A DNA stretch of 15,393 nucleotides, from positions 1 through 15,393 of IMG/VR virus record IMGVR_UViG_2675903609_000002; one strand, given 5' to 3'. The notes below the pieces were generated by a model that was not told where the DNA came from, made no database searches, and saw only the letters and a program-made list of their open reading frames with translations. The first letter of the stretch is position 1. Every line of letters starts with the position of its first letter. This document shows, piece by piece, positions 1 through 15,393 of this stretch. Both the position numbers and the translations under genes were made by a program. This DNA is from a virus (taxonomy: Duplodnaviria; Heunggongvirae; Uroviricota; Caudoviricetes).

Positions 1-93
1 CCGCATAGTGCGCTGGGTTATCGCTCGCCACGGGAATATCTGCGGCAGCGGGCTTGTAATAGGTTAAGTGATAACAGATGTCTGGAAATATAG
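1..93 (+). CDS. insD: IS2 transposase OrfB (InsD), C-terminal 30 codons only; 5' part outside window
   Basis: Frame 1 translates to [30 protein letters not shown], stop TAG at 91-93, which is the InsD C-terminus from memory. Confidence 0.8.
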
Positions 94-104
94 GGGCAAA
101 TCCA
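1..104 (+). mobile_element. IS2, right-end fragment (element continues beyond the window start); terminus at 104
   Basis: Bases 1-104 match the 3' end of IS2 as I remember it, ending in the terminal repeat ...GTGATAACAGATGTCTGGAAATATAGGGGCAAATCCA. The sequence after 104 is unrelated usher coding sequence. Confidence 0.85.
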
Positions 105-1829
105 CCAGCGTTCTAACGGAATACTGAGATTCAAAGAGAGTGCACGGTCATTATTTTCATCAGTGTAGCGGCTGTATTGATAATTCAGGCTGTAACCAAT
201 TCCCCATTGCTGGCCGGAAACCCCAACAGAGATATTACTGTTTTTCTCGTTATTGCCCCAATAGTCTTGCTGTGAACCGGAGGCATACAGACTTACCCCA
301 TCAAATATTGTCTGGCTGATGTTGAATTGAATTTCACTTTTTTGGCGACTGTTATAGCCCCAATTGCGGGTATTGGCTTCATCAAAACTAAAATAGCCAT
401 CGTTGGTATAGCGATAGTAGCTAACAGCGATATTGGTGTTGGTTTCCGGGATATCTTTGATGTACTGAGTACGCCATTGATAGCCATGAAAAGAGTGCTG
501 GTTATCGAATTGGGTGTCAGCTCTGTTGATATCCATCGACAACGCGCCCAGTGCGCCAAGTGTGCCGCCGATACCGATCCCCAGCGCATAATAATCTTCA
601 GAACCGAGCAGGCCGCCATACAGCGTAAAAGTATTATTCAAACCATATATTGCCGTGGCTTCAGCAAATTCGGGTTCCTTGCTATCACTGTTTGCATCAG
701 CGCGATAGCGTCCAGCGGTCGCGCTATATTTTAGATGCCCAGGTCGCTGCATCATGGGTAATGAAGAATAAGGCTGGATAAAGCGACGTTGTGTACCGTC
801 ACTTTCTTCAATCGTGACTTCTAAATCGCCGCTGTTGGAAGAGGGGTAGAGATCGTTAATTTCAAAGGCACCCGCTGGCACGTTGCTTTGATAGATCACA
901 TAACCATTTTGCCTGATAGTCACGATTGCACTACTGTTTGCGATACCGCGTACCGTTGGGGCAAATCCGCGCTGGCTGTTTGGCAACATATTATCGTCGG
1001 AAGCGAGTTGCACGCCAGTAAAGGCGTAGCTGGAAAAAATACTGCCGCTGGTGGCGCTTTCTCCCAGAAGCAACTGAGACTTCAACGCCTTGATATCACG
1101 TTGTAAATAACTACTGATAGTGTTCCAGCTTGACGCCTGATCGTTGCGTGTCCACGTAGAATAGTTACGTAATCGCCAGGGGCCAAAATTAGCACCATTT
1201 TGCATATTCAGGTACTGTCGTTGGCTACGATTGCCCTGGCGGTAACGGTTATCAGAACCTGTAAACGAGTAGTTGGTAAACAGCGTTGGTATACCATCGT
1301 CCCAACGAGAAGGGGAGACGTAACCTCTTGCATCACGGTACAGTGCAATTTGGGGAATGCTCAAATTAAGTCGCTGATGATTGAAATCAAATTCAGCAGC
1401 TGTACCGGGAATGATTTGTTCAAGCGAGTTGATCACGCTATCGTCATCTTTTTCAGCCAGCGCCGGGATTTCATCCACCTTAATACCCAGCTCACGTAGT
1501 TGTTCTACCGTAAACTGTGGCTGCAGAAGTTGCTCTGCATTGGCGGTAAATGTAATTTTTTTCTGTGAAACCTTCTTTTTATTCAGCCAGATATCAACCT
1601 GATAAGTTCCTGGTAGTTGTGCGTATTTTTTTGAAAAACGTGACAGATCGGTTGTTTGCATACCACTTTTTGTAGTTTCCAGCATAATGGGGTCGAAATA
1701 ATACTCTTCGGCGTTAGCGGTAGTGCAAAGCATGCCGCTGCCAGTGAGCACCATCGGCAAACAACGTTTGATAATGAGCGCCAACTGTTTCGGTGTGCGT
1801 TTATGTCCCTGGTGGTGTCGTTGTGGCAT
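105..1829 (-). pseudogene. Fimbrial outer-membrane usher (PapC/FimD family), interrupted by IS2; N-terminal ~575 codons present
   Basis: Minus-strand ORF with signal peptide and usher N-terminal motif (MPQRHH...MVLTGSGMLCTTANAEEYYFDPIMLE...). The frame runs without a stop into the IS2 end at 104, so track ORF 18..1898 is a read-through artefact. Start taken at ATG 1829, 28 nt after the chaperone stop. Confidence 0.8.
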
Positions 1830-1857
1830 TCCCTGATGGCCTGTGTTTTTATATTTT

Positions 1858-2493
1858 TTATTGCAGTGGACGAGTTTCTGTCCCGGAACTGCCGCCATAA
1901 TCGTTGATCGCAGCCCATTTCACGTTCTTTCCGCCAGATGCTGGAAGTGGTAACTGTTTATGTTCTCCGGGCGCGATATATTCAATTTTGCTTGTGAGAT
2001 CGGTTTTATCGACTGCCAGTCCGGCAAATACGACGTAATATTCAGTTGGGTTATATATATTGAGTGAATGGTCACTACGTTTAAATTCCAGTGATTTCCA
2101 CGCATCGTTTACCCGTCCCTTCAGGTGTGCGGGGCGATAAAACATTTTGACCCGCGTTTTAAATACCAGCGTCAACTCGTTAGCATTAACATCATCTGAT
2201 TTTTTCTTTGCTGGAATGGCACGAACATTAATGTAGAACAGCGACTCTTTATTTTCAGGCAGGTTATCAGCTGTTTTAATAATTCGCAGTGATGAGTCAT
2301 CGCCAGCCTCAAGACGAAATAGCGGTGGGGTTATAATAAATGGGGCACGGCTTTTACCATCTATATTATCTACCCATGATTGCAGTAAATAAGGCGTTTC
2401 TGCGCCTTTGTTTGCGACAGGTAACGCAGCCTCTTTGCGGCTGGCATCATAGATCACTCGCGTTCGCTGTAAAACGATACCCCCTGCAGACAT
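1858..2493 (-). pseudogene. Fimbrial periplasmic chaperone (PapD/FimC family), 5'-truncated with no signal peptide
   Basis: Translation has chaperone hallmarks ([14 protein letters not shown]..., ...YLLQSWVDN...[13 protein letters not shown]...). The ORF begins at the mature-protein position, with an in-frame TAG (2494-2496) directly upstream and no signal peptide in any frame. Confidence 0.7.
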
Positions 2494-2562
2494 CTACTTG
2501 AAGCGGCAGGGGATTGATTGGAATGGTGTTTTTTAGATGTGAGAAATATTTTACCCGCTATT

Positions 2563-2763
2563 TTACCCATTGGCGCGGCTTAAGAGCTTATTTTTGAATT
2601 CACAATGGTCACGATATAACCATCTTGCTCGACCGTGGATAACTTTGGCTTTAGGCAGGTCGCCGGACTTAATCCGGTCGTAGATGAAGGTTTTACCAAA
2701 GCCAGTATCAGCCATGATGAATTTCAAATCAACCAGTGAATCAGGTTGTAGTTCGTGTTGCAT
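2563..2763 (-). CDS. AlpA/excisionase-family small DNA-binding protein (Xis-like), 66 aa
   Basis: SD GGAG 9 nt upstream of ATG 2763. Sequence ...DLKFIMADTGFGKTFIYDRIKSGDLPKAKVIHGRARW... resembles phage AlpA/Xis HTH proteins. It is the last gene of the leftward operon, where lambdoid xis sits. Confidence 0.55.
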   Translation of the reverse strand: MQHELQPDSLVDLKFIMADTGFGKTFIYDRIKSGDLPKAKVIHGRARWLYRDHCEFKNKLLSRANG

Positions 2764-2804
2764 GAGTGCTATCTCCGAATAGGGAATCGAACCTGCAAAT
2801 CAGG

Positions 2805-2830
2805 CAATAAAAAACCGCCATCAGGCGGCT
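2805..2830 (-). terminator. Intrinsic terminator candidate after the zinc-ribbon gene
   Basis: Minus-strand RNA AGCCGCC-UGAU-GGCGGUU followed by a U-rich tail (UUUUUUAUU). Confidence 0.45.
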
Positions 2831-2894
2831 TGGTGTTCTTTCAGTTCTTCAATTCGAATATTGGTTACATTGTTTTCATATATGAATAAATAAA

Positions 2895-3074
2895 TTAGCT
2901 TTTTTCGTTGCCTTCGCGTTCTTTATTAATTTTGACAAAATCGTTTTTACCACGCTCTCCAAATGCGTCTTTAGAGTCGTTGTATCCGCAATCGCAGCAC
3001 ACATAATCATCAGACCATCCACGCATTGTTTTTTCTTTTGCAATATTTCCAGAACCGCATTTTGGACAAGACAT
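2895..3074 (-). CDS. Small zinc-ribbon protein, 59 aa (CPKC...CCDC)
   Basis: SD GGAGG 7 nt upstream of ATG 3074. Translation MSCPKCGSGNIAKEKTMRGWSDDYVCCDCGYNDSKDAFGERGKNDFVKINKEREGNEKS has two Cys pairs. Confidence 0.55.
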   Translation of the reverse strand: MSCPKCGSGNIAKEKTMRGWSDDYVCCDCGYNDSKDAFGERGKNDFVKINKEREGNEKS

Positions 3075-3170
3075 ATCACTACCTCCAAAGCATGAGTGAG
3101 ATGACAACGTAACATTGATTGGAGATTAACAATAGATTGCTGATGTAAAAGATATGTATAAGCTTCGCTT

Positions 3171-4055
3171 TCAAAGTGGAGGCTCTGGTAGTGGCATCCA
3201 GTGGGTTACATTGCTAATCAGACCATATTCATTAGTTTGAGGATGGTTGCCGTTATCGTCTCCGTATTTAAGACTCTCCATAAAACCATAATGCTTATTC
3301 CCATTAACGCTCACAAAGCCGTAATAAGCTGGTATAACGCCGATCTCACACGTAATCAGCAAAGGAAAACTAGTTCTCCAATTTAGCTCGCCGATTACAG
3401 GCATTCTCTCACTACAGCTTATCCAACTATCCTGAGTTACCGGAGAGTTGCGCATTGCGACCTTTAATGCCTCATAGAAGCAACCTTTCAGATTGTTGAA
3501 CTGACGCCCATTTAGCAGGCCGTGTTCAGTCAGCATGTTGTGTAATTTCCATGCCGCGTCGTTTACTTCGCTGGATGACAGGGGAGGCAACTTGTAAGTT
3601 TGGCTTACAGTTTCGGCACCATGAAGCATGGCGTCGCTCCGCTCTATGCCATCCAGCGCGATTCGCAGTGCCTGAATTGTGGTAGAGCTATCGTTTGGGG
3701 CTATTCCATATCGCTCGAATACAGCTAAATGGTTGCGCATAATCTCAGGCGTAAGCTCTTTGTAAGCATAAGCAAGAGGCTCTGATGCATTATCCGGCAC
3801 AACCGACGCAGGCGCGGCAGCATAAACAGGAATAACGTCCGCTTGCTCTTTATTGCTTTCATCCGTTAAAGCCCAGAATAATTTCCCGGCAGGATGTTTG
3901 AAAATATAAGCAACTGGTTCTGCTTCCAGCGATGCCAGAGCAATTCGTGCCAGTTCTTCCGCTTCTTCTGCTGGCAGTTCAACGTTGCTACCAGGTCCGT
4001 ATGTTTCGCGCCACTGCTTGATTGTCAGTAGTCGCTCTTTGGTCATAGTGGTCAT
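3171..4055 (-). CDS. Phage early protein, 294 aa, C-terminal region resembling DUF551 (...THWMPLPEPPL)
   Basis: SD AAGGAG 7 nt upstream of ATG 4055, 1 nt after the upstream stop. Long ORF in the operon orientation. The DUF551 assignment is from motif memory only. Confidence 0.6.
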   Translation of the reverse strand: MTTMTKERLLTIKQWRETYGPGSNVELPAEEAEELARIALASLEAEPVAYIFKHPAGKLFWALTDESNKEQADVIPVYAAAPASVVPDNASEPLAYAYKELTPEIMRNHLAVFERYGIAPNDSSTTIQALRIALDGIERSDAMLHGAETVSQTYKLPPLSSSEVNDAAWKLHNMLTEHGLLNGRQFNNLKGCFYEALKVAMRNSPVTQDSWISCSERMPVIGELNWRTSFPLLITCEIGVIPAYYGFVSVNGNKHYGFMESLKYGDDNGNHPQTNEYGLISNVTHWMPLPEPPL

Positions 4056-4785: not shown

Positions 4786-5005
4786 TGTTTGCCTCCTTTG
4801 CTCGCTGATTCCACTCTGCTCTAACCTCTGAATAAAAAATCGCGCAGTCATTTCCAGGCGCTGCATATTTGCTACCAGATTGAGCGCGACACGTACCGCA
4901 TCGAACGAAATAGAATCGACCGCCAGAGCCATATTCAGGGTGATCTGCTTCGCTGGCAACGTGCGCTGCACCGCCACAGAATGGACATGGTAGTAGGTTG
5001 CTCAT
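4772..5005 (-). CDS. Lar-family restriction-alleviation-type zinc-finger protein, 77 aa
   Basis: [16 protein letters not shown]...FVRCGTCRA... has the CPFCGG / CxxC pattern of Lar-family proteins. SD AAGGGAG upstream; its ATG overlaps the upstream stop as ATGA. Confidence 0.6.
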   Translation of the reverse strand: MSNLLPCPFCGGAAHVASEADHPEYGSGGRFYFVRCGTCRAQSGSKYAAPGNDCAIFYSEVRAEWNQRAKEANSEQD

Positions 5006-5562
5006 GAATGCACTCCCTTGTGAAGCTGTTCCGCACAATGCAGCAGGGCGTCAGTCGCCTCTTTCACCGTAACGCAGTCGCCATCGTCCAGCCCGGACAC
5101 CGACGCGTGCTTAACGAACGCCGCGCAAAGGTCATCAAACGCCTTAGCCCGGACTTCAGTCAGGAAAGCATCGGTGGCTGGGGTGTCTGATTGCATAGAC
5201 TTTGCGCGATAGTCATTCCACCCTCTTGCATACATGGGATTAACTTGCACTCCATCTTTTACGCAATATGCCTGCCCTCCACGGTTGATAACCTTGATTT
5301 CGTCCATAGCGCCAGACTTCAGCCCCGCATTCTCCGCTGCCAGTGCCGAAAACTTCTCGTGTGCCAACTTAACAGCCGAATCAGCCTGCTTAATTGACTC
5401 AATCGCTTTCTGTTGGTCTTCGGCCAGCGCCAAAATCTTGGCCTCCGCTTCAGCAAATTTACGCACCAGATATTCAGCGTTTGTTTCGTTAACATTTAAA
5501 TCTCGTGGGATGCATTTACCTTTCAGAAAACCATCCATCTCAATTAGTGACATTTGTTTCAT
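5002..5562 (-). CDS. Hypothetical phage protein, 186 aa
   Basis: ATG 5562 overlaps the stop of the upstream small ORF (ATGA). SD-like GGAG upstream. Helical N-terminal half, no motif I recognise. Confidence 0.55.
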
Positions 5563-5723
5563 TTCTTCCCACTCCGCCACATCGCATTCAGATATTTGTT
5601 TTGATTCACTGATGGAAACGAGTTTCGCTTAAGCAATTCCTCTCTCGATGGCATTGGCTTTACGCGTTGGCGAATAATCATTTCTGCCGGAAGAATGCCG
5701 GGATTGTATGCAAGTCCTCTCAT
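5559..5723 (-). CDS. Hypothetical small protein, 54 aa
   Basis: SD GAGGA 7 nt upstream of ATG 5723. Stop overlaps the downstream start (ATGA). Longer in-frame starts at 5756 and 5741 lack an SD. Confidence 0.4.
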
Positions 5724-5733
5724 GGTAAATTCC

Positions 5734-6030
5734 TCAGTCATTACTGATAGCGCCATAGCGTGATCGATAATTACGCAGACGCGGGTCGATATATTCAGGG
5801 AAGTGGGTATATGTGGCTTTGCGGAATGGTCGGATTGATGTCTGGTAAATTCGCTCGCGTTCTTCTTTCTCTGCAAGCCATATACAGTGGCGAAATTCCT
5901 TTTCCTCTTTCGTTTCCTGCGGTAGCGACATTATCCGATCGTAGTTTTTTCTGAATTTATCCAGCACCTCCGATACGGAATTGCCGGAACAGCGGCGCGG
6001 GTCATCCGCACCATACAGAGGCGCTGGCAT
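5734..6030 (-). CDS. Hypothetical phage protein, 98 aa
   Basis: SD AGGAGA 5 nt upstream of ATG 6030, 14 nt after the exonuclease stop. Confidence 0.55.
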
Positions 6031-6046: not shown

Positions 6047-6595
6047 TTATTTAGCTAACTTTTTCCAGATCGCTGAAACGTATTTGGCTTGGTGAATGGC
6101 ATCATCAAGAGCGTTGTGGCGAGTTCCTTTGAATGGCATATCTCGCTTAGGGTCGAATCCTATTGCCTTCCCAAGTTCGACGATTGTTCTTACGTCGCGG
6201 TCATTCCACCACTGCCACGGAACTGGCTGCCCTGTCAGCGAATAACTGTTGCGGAGAATAACGCAGTCAAATGATGCTCCATTCCCCCAAACCTGAACGA
6301 ATTTGTGGTTAGCGTTCTTTATGATGAATTCAGATAACCATGAAAGAGCCGTTGAAAGCTCCTGAGTGTTGCTGGTTAGCGATTTCCTGGCTTCTTCACT
6401 CTGTTCCAGCCACCATAAAATCGTTGAAGCGTCAGGACGCGCTCGATATCGCATTGATGATTCAAGCGAGATATTTACCGAGAACTCTTCTCCTGTTTCT
6501 CCGGTATTCGGGTCAAAGAATACCGCCCCAATAGAAATAACTGGCGCGTATGGCCCGTTGCCCATTGTTTCAAGGTCAACCATCAAGTGATTCAT
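6047..6595 (-). CDS. DnaQ-like (DEDD) 3'-5' exonuclease, 182 aa
   Basis: Exo motifs MVDLETMG (I), WGNGASFD (II) and HNALDDAIHQA (III). SD AAGGA upstream. Confidence 0.8.
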   Translation of the reverse strand: MNHLMVDLETMGNGPYAPVISIGAVFFDPNTGETGEEFSVNISLESSMRYRARPDASTILWWLEQSEEARKSLTSNTQELSTALSWLSEFIIKNANHKFVQVWGNGASFDCVILRNSYSLTGQPVPWQWWNDRDVRTIVELGKAIGFDPKRDMPFKGTRHNALDDAIHQAKYVSAIWKKLAK

Positions 6596-6603
6596 GTAAG
6601 TCC

Positions 6604-7119
6604 TTAAATTGCGTGAATAGCGTGACGAGGGAAGGGGAGAGTTACTGGTGCAAAGGGGATATCGTCGTCAAAATCCATAGGTGGTTCGCTGTGATTTCCC
6701 TGCTGCTGAGGTTGCTGTCTTTGTTGCTGACCATTATTTCGCTGAGGTGAAGACTGTTCATTGCCTCCTTGCTTGCCACCAAGCATTTGCATGGTTCCAC
6801 CAACGCCCACGATGACTTCGGTAGTGAACCGATCCTGTCCGCTTTGATCCTGCCATTTTCTTGTCCGCAATTTGCCTTCAAGATAAACCTCAGAGCCTTT
6901 TCGCAGATATTCGCTGGCAATTTCTGCCAGTTTCCCGCTCATTACCACGCGGTGCCACTCCGTCTGCTCCTTTTGCTCTCCAGTTTTCTTATCACGCCAT
7001 TGTTCTGACGTAGCAACGGTAAGGTTTGCAAATGCCGTTCCTGATGGTGAATATCTGATTTCTGGATCATGCCCAAGGCGACCAATAATGATCACCTTAT
7101 TTACGCCTCTGCTTGCCAT
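6604..7119 (-). CDS. ssb: Single-stranded DNA-binding protein (SSB), 171 aa, with a 15-aa extension after the DDDIPF tip
   Basis: [16 protein letters not shown]... OB fold, Gly/Gln-rich linker, then ...[11 protein letters not shown] followed by [15 protein letters not shown] before the stop. Confidence 0.9.
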
Positions 7120-7827
7120 TTATGCCGCCTGTTTTAGTTCGTTAACTCTGATGTTCATTACCTGAACGCATTTAGCCTGCGCCTCCTCGTTGCCAGCCAT
7201 TAATTGCCAGTCACGCTGATAACGCTCGATGAGTTTTTTCTTGTCAGTTTCTGTTGACGCATAATCGCTGAAGTCTTTCAGGATTTGTTCGCAGTCAACC
7301 GATGGAGATTTCTGGTTGGTATTTTCTGGTGATGGTTTGTTATCTGATGCTGGGATTGCCCATCCCGGCAGCGATGGAGGGAGCCAGTAAAATCCTGTTC
7401 CATCCTTGAGTTTTGCCCTGTGCCATCCCTGCTTTTTATCGAGAGATGTTTGTGCAAAACCTTCCTCAAGGTTATACAGATACCGACCGATCCCCCACTG
7501 AACGGCAGCGCGCTTCATTGCACCGGAACGACCACCTTTGACGGCTTCTACCTGCGTGTTTTCAGCAGCATCCCATTTGGTTACCCATTCGGAATCAATC
7601 CTGATTGATATGCCGCATTCAACGCCTCCGTTGTTGGGAATATCGCGGTATTCATTGCGCCATCCTGCTTTGCCGCAAACATCGTCCAGGCGTTTCATGA
7701 TTGCCCGGTTCGTGACATAAGCCAGCACCATAGCCCACACTTTGCCATCGCGTGTTTTACCGCTTTGCTGTATTCGCCATTCGATATCTTCAGGGCTGAA
7801 TGGCTTATCGAATTTATTCAAATCCAT
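7120..7827 (-). CDS. Rad52/Rad22-family single-strand annealing protein (Sak-like), 235 aa
   Basis: ...AYVTNRAIMKRLDDVCGKAGWRNEY...GGVECGISIRI... fits the Rad52 N-domain pattern. Directly upstream of ssb (stop abuts the ssb ATG); SD GAGGTGA upstream. Confidence 0.65.
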   Translation of the reverse strand: MDLNKFDKPFSPEDIEWRIQQSGKTRDGKVWAMVLAYVTNRAIMKRLDDVCGKAGWRNEYRDIPNNGGVECGISIRIDSEWVTKWDAAENTQVEAVKGGRSGAMKRAAVQWGIGRYLYNLEEGFAQTSLDKKQGWHRAKLKDGTGFYWLPPSLPGWAIPASDNKPSPENTNQKSPSVDCEQILKDFSDYASTETDKKKLIERYQRDWQLMAGNEEAQAKCVQVMNIRVNELKQAA

Positions 7828-7926: not shown

Positions 7927-8085
7927 TTATGGCGATACCAGAGAGCTTTCTGCGTGTACATGCGTCTCTGTAACTTGCTCTCCTTCACTGTGGTTGCAAG
8001 TGACATGAATATCTCCTTCGTTACCGATTAATTCTTTCATATGACGAATGAATTCTTCGTCTGACCAGTTATCTGTAAAACTCAT
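7927..8085 (-). CDS. Hypothetical small protein, 52 aa
   Basis: ATG 8085 overlaps the Kil-like stop as ATGA. No SD of its own; an internal ATG at 8040 is an alternative start. Confidence 0.3.
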   Translation of the reverse strand: MSFTDNWSDEEFIRHMKELIGNEGDIHVTCNHSEGEQVTETHVHAESSLVSP

Positions 8086-8234
8086 TTCCTGCGACACCAC
8101 GGAAGGTTGATAGCTGATTTCATCGCTTTATTTGCTTCAAGCCACATTTTTGAATCACCAATAAATCTGGCTATTACTGCTTTGTTCTGTGCAGCACGAA
8201 GCATCTGATGATTTATGGCTATTTCATTGCGCAT
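8082..8234 (-). CDS. Kil-like small protein, 50 aa (not in ORF track, under 60 aa)
   Basis: MRNEIAINHQMLRAAQNKAVIARFIGDSKMWLEANKAMKS... resembles the ...FIGDEKM... core of lambda Kil / Rac KilR from memory. Lies immediately downstream of cIII as in lambda. Confidence 0.5.
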   Translation of the reverse strand: MRNEIAINHQMLRAAQNKAVIARFIGDSKMWLEANKAMKSAINLPWCRRK

Positions 8235-8374: not shown

Positions 8375-9343
8375 TTAGTAGGTTATTTTTGTTGCGAATA
8401 CTTCGCCTTTTACGATGGCTGTTATGATATTTTTAGCAACATCTTCTGATGCACCAACCTTGATAAGGTCAGCAAGTATTTTGTTATTTACTTCTTTCCG
8501 GTGAGCTTTATCCTTTGCTCTACGCTCTTCTTCTTCCTTGATTCTTTTTTCTTCTGCTATTCTGGCTTGCTCTTTTGCTTCAGCATCGCGACGGATTCGT
8601 TCAGCCTCCTCCTGTGCTTTTCTGCGTTCTGCTTCAATTGCTGCCTGCTTTTCTCTTTCAGCTCGTTCTGCTGCCTCTTTTGCTTCGCGCTGTGCTCGCT
8701 GCTCGGCTTCAATGCGTTCACGCTCTGCACGTTCCGCTGCGGCCTTAGCTTCTGCTTCTCGCCTTGCTGCTGCTTCAATTTCGGCTTTTGCCTTTGCTTC
8801 GGCTTCTGCTCTGGCTTTCTCTTCAGCTTCTCTTTTTAAGCGTTCTTCATGCTCTCGCTTTTCCTGCTCCGCTTTGAGTCTTGCCTCTTCTCTTTGGCGG
8901 TCAAATTCGCGATCCATCAAAATAGCTATTTCATGGTCAGACTCAATTTGCTTTGCGAGAGCTTCAGCTGCTGCCTTAGCTTCTTCTTCGGCTTTAATCC
9001 GCGCCTGTTCTTCCTCATAATCAGTAAGAGGCTGGCGCGCCTTGGCTTTCAGTTCATCAAGGCGATCGCGCACTGTCTTGCGGTTAGCATCAATTAGCTT
9101 TGGAATTTCCTTCAGTTCAGCAACAAGGTCTTTGCCAAGACCATCGAGATATGTTTTCGTCTGCGCAACTTTATACGCCAGAGAAGCGATCTCCTTTCTG
9201 CCCTTTGCCGTTGTGATATCAGGCACAAAGGACATAACTTCACGTTCAACCTTTTGAAGGATTTCTTCAATCTGGTCGGCAGACTGAAATACAGTCATTG
9301 CATTTGCTTTTTCAATAACAACTAAATCTGTTACTTCACTCAT
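8375..9343 (-). CDS. Hypothetical early protein, 322 aa: N-terminal ~120-aa domain, ~170-aa Ala/Glu/Lys/Arg-rich coiled-coil region, short C-terminal domain
   Basis: SD GGAGGA 5 nt upstream of ATG 9343. Long ORF in operon orientation. The central region is low-complexity at DNA level. Confidence 0.7.
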   Translation of the reverse strand: MSEVTDLVVIEKANAMTVFQSADQIEEILQKVEREVMSFVPDITTAKGRKEIASLAYKVAQTKTYLDGLGKDLVAELKEIPKLIDANRKTVRDRLDELKAKARQPLTDYEEEQARIKAEEEAKAAAEALAKQIESDHEIAILMDREFDRQREEARLKAEQEKREHEERLKREAEEKARAEAEAKAKAEIEAAARREAEAKAAAERAERERIEAEQRAQREAKEAAERAEREKQAAIEAERRKAQEEAERIRRDAEAKEQARIAEEKRIKEEEERRAKDKAHRKEVNNKILADLIKVGASEDVAKNIITAIVKGEVFATKITY

Positions 9344-9355
9344 ATATCCTCCGTC

Positions 9356-9384
9356 AAAAAAATTGCCCTCACACTGGAGGGCAA
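9356..9384 (-). terminator. Intrinsic terminator immediately upstream of the 322-aa gene
   Basis: Minus-strand RNA UUGCCCUC-CAGUGU-GAGGGCAA followed by U7; the gene's SD starts 5 nt later. Confidence 0.6.
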
Positions 9385-9500
9385 AGAAGATTTCCAATAA
9401 TCAGAACAAGTCGGCTCCTGTTTAGTTACGAGCGACATTGCTCCGTGTATTCACTCGTTGGAATGAATACACAGTGCAGTGTTTATTCTGTTGTTTATGC

Positions 9501-9797: not shown

Positions 9798-10124
9798 TCA
9801 AATAAGTGGTTTGCTGCCTAATTTCATTTTCTGGCGACCAACACAAGTCACACCCATTTCACTGCGTGGCTTGCTGTACCATGTGCGCTGATTCTTGCGC
9901 TCAATACGCTGCAGGTTGCTTTCAATCTGTTCGTGGTATTCAGCCAGCACCGTAAGGTCTATCGGATTCAGTGCGCTTTCTACTCGTGATTTCGGTTTGC
10001 GATTCAGCGAGAGAATAGGGCGGTTAACTGGTTTTGCGCTTACCCCAACCAACAGGGGATTTGCTGCTTTCCATTGAGCCTGTTTCTCTGCGCGACGTTC
10101 GCGGCGGCGTGTTTGAGAGTCCAT
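9798..10124 (-). CDS. N: Antitermination protein N, 108 aa
   Basis: MDSQTRRRERRAEKQAQWKAANPLLVGVSAKPVNRPILSLNRKPKSRVESALNPIDLTVLAEYH... is near-identical to lambda N (Arg-rich motif intact), differing mainly in the C-terminal ~20 aa. Confidence 0.95.
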   Translation of the reverse strand: MDSQTRRRERRAEKQAQWKAANPLLVGVSAKPVNRPILSLNRKPKSRVESALNPIDLTVLAEYHEQIESNLQRIERKNQRTWYSKPRSEMGVTCVGRQKMKLGSKPLI

Positions 10125-10753: not shown

Positions 10754-12106
<1,353 letters not shown>

Positions 12107-13541: not shown

Positions 13542-13649
13542 ATGAAATCAAAAATCAAATCGCTACTGGTTGCTGGTTATAACCACGGCTGGTTAAGTAT
13601 TTCGTTTGTCGATTTCTGGTTTAAAAATCTCAATCTGAGGGAATCATGA
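13542..13649 (+). CDS. Small hydrophobic ORF, 35 aa, bridging O and the primase-helicase
   Basis: ATG 13542 lies 3 nt after the O stop. Its stop TGA overlaps the primase-helicase ATG (ATGA). Translation MKSKIKSLLVAGYNHGWLSISFVDFWFKNLNLRES. Weak SD. Confidence 0.3.
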   Translation: MKSKIKSLLVAGYNHGWLSISFVDFWFKNLNLRES

Positions 13650-15393
13650 CGCCAAGTGAACTTAGCGACCTGCTTTGGGCGCAGGTTGACAGGGTGGCTC
13701 CGCACCTGTTGCCAAACGGCAAGAAAGAGGGGCATGAGTGGGTTGCCGGTAACGTCAATGGTGACAAGGGAAACAGCCTTAAGGTCAACCTTAGCGGCAA
13801 GAAAAAATGGGCTGATTTCGCTGAGGGAGACGGCGGTGACATGCTTGATTTGTGGATGGCATGTCGTGGAATTAACCTGCATCAGGCTATGCAGGAAGCG
13901 AAAGCATTTCTCGGTATCAAGGATGACGATCACCATTTCGATGCCAAACGTGAGAAAAAATTCTCCAGACCTGATCGCAAGAAAATCGCCCGCTACGTTA
14001 CCAGAACAGAATCCCATCTTGAGTACCTGCAATCGCGTGGCATATCGCCAGAAGTCGTAAAGCGCTACGAGGTTGTCAGCGGCAAGGTGTGGAATGGAGA
14101 ACGAGAACTTGATGCACTGGTGCTTCCGTACAAACGCGATGGTGAGTTGTTGCAGGTCAAGCGAATCAGCACTGAGCGCCCGGACGGGAAGAAAGTCATT
14201 ATGGCAGAAGGTGATTGCGAACCTTGTCTGTTCGGATGGCAGGCTCTGGACGCTGGCGTGAGGGCGGTTGTACTTTGCGAAGGCGAAATTGATTGTATGA
14301 GCTATGCGCAATACGGCATCTCGGCGTTATCCGTGCCGTTTGGTGGAGGGAAAGGCGCTAAGCAACAGTGGATTGAGTTTGAGTACCACAACCTCGACAG
14401 GTTTGAGGAAATATTCATCTCGATGGACGTTGATGATGTTGGTCGTGAAGCCGCAAGGGAAATCGCAAGCCGACTCGGTGAACATCGTTGCCGTCTTGTT
14501 ACTCTGCCGTACAAAGACATCAACGAATGCCTGATGAACGGTGTTACCGAGGATGAAATCTGGCAGTACATCGGCACGGCATCCTACTTTGATCCTGAAG
14601 AACTCTACAGCGCGCGAGAGTTTTACCAGGACACTATCAACGCTTTCTACGGCAAGCAGCAGTATCTGTTTAATCCACCGTGGGAATCTCTGGCAGATAA
14701 ATTCCAGTTTCGTGAGGCCGAGTTGACGCTGGTCAATGGTGTGAACGGTCACGGAAAAACGGAGGTTGTCGGGCATATGGCACTTGAGGCAATGCGTCAG
14801 GGTGTGAAGACGTGCATCGCGTCACTTGAGCTGAAGCCTGGTATTCTCCTTAAGCGCCTTACCCGTCAGGCGACGTGCTGCAAGATGCCGCCAGTGCTGG
14901 AAATTGACTCTGCATTTAAATTTTATGACGAAAGACTTTGGGTGTTTGGCCTGACTGGAACGGCGAAAGCCGACAGGCTGATCGAAATATTCGACTACGC
15001 TCGCCGCCGATACGGCATCCAGTTATTCATCATCGACAGCCTGATGAAATGCGGCATAGGTGACGATGACTATAACGGGCAGAAAGCATTTGTTGACTCG
15101 ATTTGTGACTTCAAAAACAAAACAAACTCCCACGTCATTCTCGTTACTCACTCCAGAAAAGGAGATAGCGAAGAAAAACCAACCGGGAAAATGGACGTAA
15201 AAGGCTCTGGAGCGATAACAGACCTGACAGACAACCTTTTTATCATCTGGCGTAACAAGGCTCGCGAGAGAGCGTTACAGAGAGTTCAGAGTGGTGAAAA
15301 GATGTCAGAGAAGGACGAACAGCTACTGGCATCTCCGGCATCTGTTTTGATGCTTGAAAAACAACGTAACGGCGAAGGTTGGGAAGGTGGTGT
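13646..15393 (+). CDS. Bifunctional DNA primase (toprim) / DnaB-like replicative helicase, 5' partial (3' end beyond window)
   Basis: Open frame from ATG 13646 (SD GAGGG) to the window end with no stop, 582 codons. Absent from the ORF track because it is open-ended. Toprim motifs VLCEGEIDCMSY and SMDVDDVGREAA; Walker A GVNGHGKT; Walker B-like LFIIDSLMK. Confidence 0.85.
   Translation, partial: MTPSELSDLLWAQVDRVAPHLLPNGKKEGHEWVAGNVNGDKGNSLKVNLSGKKKWADFAEGDGGDMLDLWMACRGINLHQAMQEAKAFLGIKDDDHHFDAKREKKFSRPDRKKIARYVTRTESHLEYLQSRGISPEVVKRYEVVSGKVWNGERELDALVLPYKRDGELLQVKRISTERPDGKKVIMAEGDCEPCLFGWQALDAGVRAVVLCEGEIDCMSYAQYGISALSVPFGGGKGAKQQWIEFEYHNLDRFEEIFISMDVDDVGREAAREIASRLGEHRCRLVTLPYKDINECLMNGVTEDEIWQYIGTASYFDPEELYSAREFYQDTINAFYGKQQYLFNPPWESLADKFQFREAELTLVNGVNGHGKTEVVGHMALEAMRQGVKTCIASLELKPGILLKRLTRQATCCKMPPVLEIDSAFKFYDERLWVFGLTGTAKADRLIEIFDYARRRYGIQLFIIDSLMKCGIGDDDYNGQKAFVDSICDFKNKTNSHVILVTHSRKGDSEEKPTGKMDVKGSGAITDLTDNLFIIWRNKARERALQRVQSGEKMSEKDEQLLASPASVLMLEKQRNGEGWEGG

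Follow-up and report, generated by a model that had tools for sequence, protein, structure and literature searches.

[quoted passage not shown] The ssb gene of the prophage studied here raises the question of what becomes of such a tip when it does not end the protein. A sequence-only reading of the window (the whole 15,393-nucleotide stretch of IMG/VR record IMGVR_UViG_2675903609_000002 that was analysed) had noted that the SSB open reading frame runs past DDDIPF, and translation of positions 6604-7119 gives exactly this result, with 15 further residues and then a TAA stop. The range given for the feature at that time, 6604-6660, spans the IPF, the tail and the stop.

The gene (6604..7119, minus strand) encodes a 171-residue phage SSB with a capped tip, identified from its ORF and translation, from Pfam PF00436 and PHROG 44, and from RefSeq homologues annotated as ssb. 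A Pfam search placed PF00436 over residues 6-105 of the product (E = 3.7e-38), and this match, an AF2 model and homologue identity delimit a putative OB-fold DNA-binding core of approximately residues 1-112 (6784..7119, minus strand). The AF2 monomer model, built with a 34-sequence alignment, predicts a beta-barrel plus one helix, with strands between E9 and E114 and pLDDT values of ~70-90. From residue 117 on, pLDDT lies below 50, both in linker residues 117-146 and in the tail, which is predicted to be disordered; only the OB fold is confident in this monomer model, and it carries no information on tail docking. Low complexity and low identity, together with the AF2 model, mark residues 113-145 (6685..6783, minus strand) as a Gln/Pro/Gly-rich disordered linker.

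Read codon by codon, the acidic tip of 11 residues (146-156; 6652..6684, minus strand) is internal rather than C-terminal, and a cap or tail of 15 residues follows it (157-171; 6607..6651, minus strand). The tail belongs to class A, a capped-tip group defined within the present analysis by DDDIPF, then [AS]P, and a 14-16 residue tail of the form [VIL]-[GT]-L-x-[FYH]-...-[ILVM]. The TAA stop codon (6604..6606, minus strand) also lies within the TAAGGA Shine-Dalgarno sequence of the downstream exonuclease gene, whose ATG is at 6593-6595.

The chromosomal SSB of E. coli (PF00436; PDB 1eqq_A, 178 aa) resembles the window protein in its OB fold and its Gln/Pro/Gly linker, and its last 11 residues are identical to the 11-residue tip. 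However, 1eqq_A ends exactly at the IPF of this tip, which there forms the extreme C-terminus with a free carboxylate, whereas the window SSB continues for 15 conserved residues, a true addition to the canonical sequence. The window SSB, which is ~62% identical to a host-type SSB cluster (P0010), consequently has the OB fold, the disordered linker and then the DDDIPF tip expected of a PF00436 member, while the free alpha-carboxylate of a terminal Phe is replaced by the 15 residues that follow F156.

Host fimbrial usher and chaperone genes occupy the start of the window (18-2493), with a lambdoid prophage beyond them. The pL operon of this prophage reads N (9798-10124), kil (8082-8234), annealing protein, ssb, exonuclease and abc2; a cI-like S24 repressor gene (11155-11787) lies on the other side of the prophage, together with cII and an O-like replication protein, and the prophage also holds DUF2737, Ead/Ea22 and DUF551 genes. 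Directly upstream of ssb is a single-strand annealing protein gene (7120..7827, minus strand; PF04098 over residues 4-136, PHROG 1097), the stop codon of which abuts the ssb ATG. Its product joins a Rad52_Rad22 core to an Erf-type C-terminal domain, with a C-terminal 75 aa that is 65% identical to the C-terminus of P22 Erf. Directly downstream of ssb are a Rv2179c-like 3'-5' exonuclease gene (6047..6595, minus strand; PF16473, E = 6.9e-74) and, in the same recombination module, the anti-RecBCD gene abc2 (5734..6030, minus strand; PF11043, E = 4.3e-62). Phages HK75 and ECP1 have no exonuclease at that position, and abc2 follows ssb directly. The ssb gene with its internal DDDIPF is an early pL-operon gene within the recombination module of a lambdoid E. 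coli prophage, which agrees with its initial description as a prophage SSB and with the location of class A.

One explanation of the extension, already offered in the sequence-only reading, is the loss of a stop codon in a decaying prophage, or else a sequencing or assembly error near position 6650. Close homologues in Sf6, IME10, N7 and ES18 do stop directly after IPF, as such an explanation would predict. However, a search of 5,426 complete E. coli genomes located the fused tip-and-tail DNA, an 87-nt segment, in 299 of them, and the 1.8-kb block of annealing protein, ssb and exonuclease genes occurs in 140 complete E. coli genomes (at least 80% coverage). The same extension occurs in many isolated phages, among them HZ41, ECP1 and CP-1639, and it also sits on SSB bodies that are only 70% identical (HK75, mEp235, mEpX2, epsilon34 and g341c). 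Its recurrence in hundreds of independent assemblies shows that no read or assembly error created it. An assembly labelled DH5alpha (phi80) was also considered as a carrier of the module and was set aside: it contains csc genes and shares the dsd/csc-adjacent prophage of E. coli W (NC_017664.1, NC_017635.1), so the strain label looks wrong.

Alignment with other SSBs, the comparison first suggested for deciding whether the extension is conserved, revealed that the 15-aa tail is kept in 115 of the best 120 clusters (90% identity) from a collection of 5.8 billion proteins. The hosts of these clusters are Klebsiella, Citrobacter, Salmonella, Enterobacter and Escherichia, and the 115 tails share the consensus [AS]P[VIL][TS]LPFPRH[ATV][IVM][HY][AV][IL], with conservative substitutions only. 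Mean pairwise identity among 116 homologues was 0.87 in the OB fold, 0.53 in the linker, 0.95 in the tip and 0.85 in the tail, and by this measure the tail is as constrained as the folded OB domain. This regional comparison provides the unbiased support for selection on the tail; less weight was placed on the pN/pS values of 0.3-0.4 for pattern-defined tail classes, which ascertainment biases downward.

Differences in tail DNA are mostly synonymous, with a pN/pS of 0.044 within one group sharing a 10-residue tail motif, and the tail encoded by contig L079 departs from that of the window by synonymous changes only. Homologous tails are also found on more distant SSBs, in Hafnia phage Pocitis76 and Vibrio phage 1.079.O. 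The tail is neither sporadic nor neutrally evolving, as a pseudogene or a lost stop codon would have it, and the alleles that end at IPF carry an inserted gene. These patterns refute a lesion or an artefact: the 15-residue extension is a genuine module at the C-terminus, which a large family of SSBs from phages and prophages has kept over a long time.

The sequence-only reading had set against a meaningful extension the prospect that homologues would end at IPF and that the extension would be unique to this genome. The first half holds, for IPF-ending homologues exist in Sf6, IME10, N7, ES18 and Huey; the second half fails, as the extension is shared well beyond the window genome. The SSBs of Sf6, IME10, N7, CurroJimenez and Huey end in ...MNFDD(S)D/E-IPF with a free tip, and 9-15 bases after their ssb stop codons a Cys/His-rich ORF of 155-159 aa begins. 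This ORF belongs to PHROG 2340 (endonuclease), and the DNA encoding its last 14 residues, which form the C-termini of Sf6 gp26 and of the Huey endonuclease, is identical to the tail DNA of the window ssb and in the same frame. Sf6 gp26 has 532 homologues in phages, one of them the I-KsaII enzyme that an intron of Staphylococcus phage K encodes. These homologues and the PHROG 2340 profile align only to residues ~134-143 of 159, which indicates that the tail is a captured ssb 3' end and not endonuclease sequence.

Sf6 (gp27/gp26), like IME10, N7, CurroJimenez and Huey, has the same module of Rad52-like annealing protein, ssb and abc2 as the window, and the Sf6 SSB body is 97% identical to that of the window, with identical tail DNA present. 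The difference lies in the I-KsaII-like HNH gene, which in Sf6 separates the tip (...MNFDDSDIPF, then a stop) from the tail (now the endonuclease C-terminus), whereas the window gene is uninterrupted. DNA alignments of empty sites (window, HK75, ECP1) with occupied or remnant sites (Sf6, Huey, phiKp_30) located the insertion point between CCC TTT and GCA CCA, that is, between F156 and A157 (6646..6657, minus strand). The window has the empty-site form, in which TTT (F156) runs straight into GCA CCA after an MDFDDDIPF tip. Empty, HNH-free sites read ATGGATTTTGACGAC, and the HNH-bearing alleles share the recoded tip DNA ATGAACTTCGACGAT on two ssb backbones, that of Sf6 resembling the window and that of Huey resembling HK75.

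The Sf6 and Huey endonucleases are 48% identical overall and identical from the HNH motif onward. The shared recoded tip and the identical C-terminal part of the endonucleases fit a cassette that co-converts its flank and probably immunises it. An I-KsaII-like HNH gene thus inserted exactly between F156 and A157 of ssb; a stop codon and a recoded version of the tip came with it, and its reading frame continues into the orphaned tail codons. On this evidence, the IPF ending is the derived state in the five phages with a full-length endonuclease ORF (Sf6, IME10, N7, CurroJimenez and Huey). In Klebsiella phage phiKp_30 a degraded HNH remnant separates an ssb with a free tip from a tail that is drifting, and the Sf6-type endonuclease gene is present in 98 complete E. 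coli genomes. Clusters P0022, P0058 and P0113, in which a tip of the HNH type runs on into a fused tail, may represent precise losses or uninvaded variants. Since Sf6-type phages with a free-tip SSB exist as sequenced phages, the tail must be dispensable at least in that background.

The near-perfect sharing of tail DNA also invites an explanation at the DNA level, in which the tail codons persist as a joint for mosaic recombination or as an HNH homing site and the peptide is irrelevant. The 45-nt tail DNA is 100% identical across ssb alleles whose bodies share only 70% protein identity and in the 3' end of the HNH gene, and the downstream gene differs (in HK75 and ECP1 it is abc2, in place of the exonuclease of the window), which places a module boundary right after the ssb stop codon. 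Yet distant relatives vary at synonymous positions while keeping the peptide, the tails of Hafnia, Vibrio, Klebsiella and Citrobacter are conserved as protein, and the downstream Shine-Dalgarno sequences come after the stop codon rather than within the tail; we consider this explanation very improbable. Two further candidates at the nucleotide level were rejected. Overlap with the downstream ribosome-binding site does not account for the tail, as the Shine-Dalgarno sequence begins no earlier than the stop codon, and a programmed frameshift at CCC TTT G that would yield a free tip is contradicted by homologue codons that vary (ATA CCT TTT, ATT CCG TTC), leaving no conserved slippery site.

Capped tips extend well beyond this family. 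Within an unbiased IMG/VR sample of FDDDIPF-bearing proteins (n = 116 tips), 84 tips were followed directly by a stop, 31 were capped by up to 25 residues and 1 was internal. The residue after the capped tip was Ala in 22 of the 31 cases, and Ala-Pro opened the cap in 17. DDDIPF followed by AP gave at least 120 matches in IMG/VR and at least 120 in GTDB (one genome per species). Among the best 150 representatives at 50% identity, 86 bear the tip, which is terminal in 71 of them and capped in 15. The caps comprise many unrelated sequences, from 1 to ~25 residues in length.

Classification of these caps revealed a marked association with host clade. Class A (AP-[VIL]-[GT]-L-x-[FYH]...) was found at 24 genome loci, 13 in Enterobacterales, 9 in Vibrio/Alteromonadales/Aeromonadales and 2 in others; its broad form reads [AS]P-[VIL]-[GT]-L-x-[FYH]-P-x-H-x-I-x-x-[ILV], and variants occur in Hafnia, Vibrio and Alteromonadales phages. 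The class APxHHLxGx belongs to Pseudomonadaceae at 29 of 31 loci, as does APISRLLLNII at 7 of 8; APE[WV]R is alphaproteobacterial at 13 of 14 loci, and APHFDGQF was confined to Psychrobacter (5/5 loci). A single tail class can be carried by differing bodies, namely the canonical SSB, a short SSB of 152 aa, and proteins of ~215-245 aa that have no Pfam match and adjoin Sak4-like AAA_24 ATPases. The upstream neighbours of capped proteins (non-redundant, n = 123) included YqaJ (23), AAA_24 (17), ERF (9), Rad52 (6), RecT (3), HNH endonucleases (3) and Sak (1). The cap is thus a property of ssDNA-binding proteins in the recombination modules of mobile elements, whichever annealing protein they encode. 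The tail classes track host clade independently of the SSB fold and of the adjacent recombinase family, although the association could arise in part from host-restricted phage gene pools rather than from a host partner.

What the cap does to the tip can be approached through E. coli SSB. Addition of one Gly to its C-terminus left no measurable chi binding and impaired complementation, a defect attributed to the loss of the Phe177 carboxylate and of pocket closure (Naue et al. 2011, PMC3045619); the importance that the sequence-only reading had attached to a free C-terminal Phe is borne out by this mutant. SSB+Gly resembles the window protein in having sequence after DDDIPF and in losing the Phe carboxylate, but it was engineered, gains a single residue and has a documented defect, whereas the 15 added residues of the window protein are natural and conserved. 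The canonical pockets of SSB partners engage the alpha-carboxylate of the last Phe, and given that a single Gly abolishes chi binding, the longer cap should block canonical partner docking, at least as strongly as the added Gly. The capped phage SSB would then coat phage ssDNA without the usual recruitment of host SSB-interacting proteins.

Insulation might be the whole function, with a purely steric cap that removes the free carboxylate, so that host partners are neither titrated nor recruited, and a tail that has no partner of its own. The sufficiency of one Gly against chi binding agrees with this reading, as do the unrelated sequences and the wide range of lengths among caps. A partnerless cap should drift, however, and the class A tail is as conserved as the OB fold (0.85 versus 0.87), remains recognisable from E. 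coli to Vibrio phages, and has counterparts in which each host clade possesses its own conserved class. We regard a pure cap as unlikely. The near-invariance of the internal DDDIPF would also be left unexplained if capping merely inactivated the tip.

The internal tip is nearly invariant and must therefore retain a function that does not require the free carboxylate. In E. coli SSB the tip contacts the OB fold in cis via Phe171 (PMC3936761). The window tip may be kept for such binding to the OB fold in cis, or as one half of a bipartite epitope formed by tip and tail.

A capped tip that is almost invariant would also be expected if the tip were exposed later, and this raises the prospect of a pro-peptide or degron, with a host protease clipping the tail so as to unmask the IPF in time, or with the tail shortening the life of the SSB. 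The junction is strongly biased towards Ala followed by Pro, the tails end in hydrophobic residues in the manner of known degrons, and clade-specific tails could fit clade-specific protease preferences. We matched the tail to no protease site or degron family, however, and Pro at P2' is not known as a cleavage determinant for cytosolic AAA+ proteases. Free-tip, HNH-bearing alleles moreover coexist with capped ones with no obvious compensating change, and a role as pro-peptide or degron appears distinctly unlikely.

Conservation of the tail combined with clade specificity indicates that it is more than a plug, and it is probably a short linear motif, specific to each lineage, through which the phage SSB has a private or modified interface. 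One candidate for such a motif is a beta-clamp-binding peptide, in which PVTLPF or PIGLxY would anchor the phage SSB in the hydrophobic cleft of DnaN, the sliding clamp of the host. The tail resembles the hexapeptide clamp-binding motifs QLSLPL and QLVLGL (consensus QLxLx[LF]; other forms QL[SD]LF and QLxLxL), and class A preserves the hydrophobic-x-L-x-aromatic spacing, but Pro stands where the conserved Gln is expected. Nearly all bacteria share the clamp pocket and its motif, whereas the tails of other clades differ (APLHHLAGA in Pseudomonas, APEWR in Rhizobiales, APHFDGQF in Psychrobacter), and we judge tethering to the clamp extremely improbable.

The neighbouring annealing protein was another candidate partner. 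A precedent exists in HK620, where a phage SSB lies beside an annealing protein and its last six residues, which have a phage-specific function, are required to stimulate the cognate annealase Sak4 (Hutinet et al. 2018, PMC5928155). The HK620 protein is a more distant SSB that ends freely in NDYPPF and has no cap after a host-like DDDIPF, and in contrast to its pairing with Sak4, the tail class of the window type does not follow annealase family. A C-terminal domain of ~55 aa, common to the Rad52-like, ERF and Sak4-like proteins beside capped SSBs, was rejected as the tail partner for want of specificity: it is also found in P22 Erf, although the erf-abc1-abc2 region of P22 lacks an ssb at the place that it occupies in Sf6 and HK75, and it is found in Sf6, whose SSB has a free tip, and many neighbours of capped SSBs do not have it. 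P22 Abc1, which occupies the position of ssb in that phage, carries no such tail. Because tail class ignores annealase family, a host factor would be a more likely partner than the neighbouring annealing protein. The T7 gp2.5 and Enc34 ORF6-type SSBs have a disordered acidic C-terminus that serves protein contacts and competes with ssDNA binding (PMC5686142), but their tails end in the functional residue and contain no copy of the host tip followed by a cap.

Collectively, the explanation that we favour, and consider moderately probable, is that the tail is conserved and under selection, that free tips in this family derive from HNH insertion, and that the capped SSB combines insulated docking with a lineage-specific motif. 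A broader and more tentative proposal, which we regard as possible, is that phages widely cap the tip as a strategy that has so far escaped description, used by about a quarter of viral DDDIPF proteins across several unrelated folds, in which a host-clade-specific peptide, most often opening with Ala-Pro, creates a private, insulated or decoy interface and homing endonucleases toggle between capped and free forms. The functional idea is plausible in this form, with a conserved cap that is specific to host clade and that a homing endonuclease toggles.

A peptide-string and topical literature search, with most subscription-journal papers outside its reach, returned no description of capped SSB tips, which also go unmentioned in the ETfinder, Enc34, DRT10 and HK620 papers; an earlier mention may exist in the literature. 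A PDB sequence search with tip and tail retrieved free-tip SSBs only, the tail being present in no entry. The sole trace of the tail that we found is the GenBank note on Sf6 gp26, which records '14 contiguous amino acids identical to ... E. coli SSB'.

The portability of annealing proteins in recombineering depends on SSB tails, and the capped SSBs are encoded in modules with Rad52, Erf, Sak4 or RecT proteins, which makes them relevant to that technology. HNH insertion has moreover generated natural pairs of capped and free-tip SSBs (HK75 and Huey; ECP1 or the window prophage and Sf6), and since both forms occur on the same backbone, phages already available allow a direct test of the question. 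A conserved internal tip runs counter to the usual premise that this part of SSB always ends the protein. A large natural class with an internalised tip would offer ready-made separation-of-function SSB variants and would point to a host-clade-specific binding partner or processing step. If the proposal is true, the cap would govern the access of host proteins for replication and repair, and of host nucleases, to phage ssDNA.

The Sf6 gp26-type HNH endonuclease gene, which in the alleles bearing it separates the codons of the ssb tip from those of the C-terminal tail, was detected in 98 complete E. coli genomes (for example at NZ_CP027355.1 416445-416881) and occupies positions 2984-3463 of the Sf6 locus. 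No annotated feature lies beneath the HNH gene match in the ten E. coli records listed. In Klebsiella phage phiKp_30, a degenerate remnant of the gene (2340-2550 of the phage locus) begins with MKICSRCH and soon runs into an early stop. This remnant is located between an ssb ending at a free IPF tip and a diverging tail relic of 14 residues, and the next gene is the same exonuclease gene as that of the window. The phiKp_30 locus is a case of homing-endonuclease decay caught midway. The recoded tip associated with the HNH gene (MNFDDEIPF or MNFDDSDIPF) and a fused tail occur together in five SSB protein clusters (P0022, P0058, P0080, P0086 and P0113). These clusters could represent alleles from which the endonuclease gene was precisely lost, or alternatively uninvaded ancestors of the recoded site.

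The exonuclease gene, of the Rv2179c-like 3'-5' type, forms an additional module between ssb and abc2 (window 6047-6595). In phages HK75 and ECP1, abc2 directly follows ssb, whereas the window prophage carries the exonuclease gene in between. The mosaic joint is located immediately 3' of the ssb stop codon.

Analysis of the tip-tail junction across the sampled viral and genome loci revealed that Ala directly follows the tip Phe in ~70% of capped proteins (those with a tail beyond the tip), and Ala-Pro in ~55%, across unrelated tail classes. A Rheinheimera metagenome-assembled genome (MAG) locus contains two capped DDDIPF-AP tips on the same strand, ~550 bp apart (APMGLECRRMLHCI at 5713-5735 and APMGLECWRMLHCV at 6261-6283). 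This arrangement suggests capped SSB-like genes in tandem.

The boundary between host and prophage falls within window 2493-3171, between the fimbrial chaperone gene, which ends at 2493, and the DUF551 gene. No integrase-sized ORF is present in this interval, and the only ORF detected there is one with a weak, excisionase-like HTH_17 match (2563-2763). At the thresholds applied, Pfam matched none of five sizeable minus-strand prophage ORFs, which encode 340 aa (8375-9397), 244 aa (13577-14311), 192 aa (5002-5580), 158 aa (10754-11230) and 149 aa (14327-14776).

Two records, NZ_CP026085.1 and NZ_CM135829.1, bear the strain label 'DH5alpha'. The first contains csc sucrose genes together with the prophage that is also present in NC_017664.1 and NC_017635.1, two records of E. 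coli W, and its label looks wrong. For the second, the comparison covers the ssb module only, whose 98.7% identity equals that of the E. coli W records.

Upstream of ssb, the minus-strand gene at window 7120-7827 encodes a chimeric annealing protein, in which a Rad52_Rad22 core (residues 4-136, Pfam) is joined to a C-terminal domain of ~55 aa (...ILKDFSDYA...KCVQVMNIRVNELKQAA). This domain shares 65% identity with the C-terminus of P22 Erf. In Enterobacteria as well as in Pseudomonas, the same domain is also carried by ERF-family and Sak4-like AAA_24 proteins adjoining capped SSBs. The ~55-aa C-terminal domain looks like an adapter domain common to several protein families.
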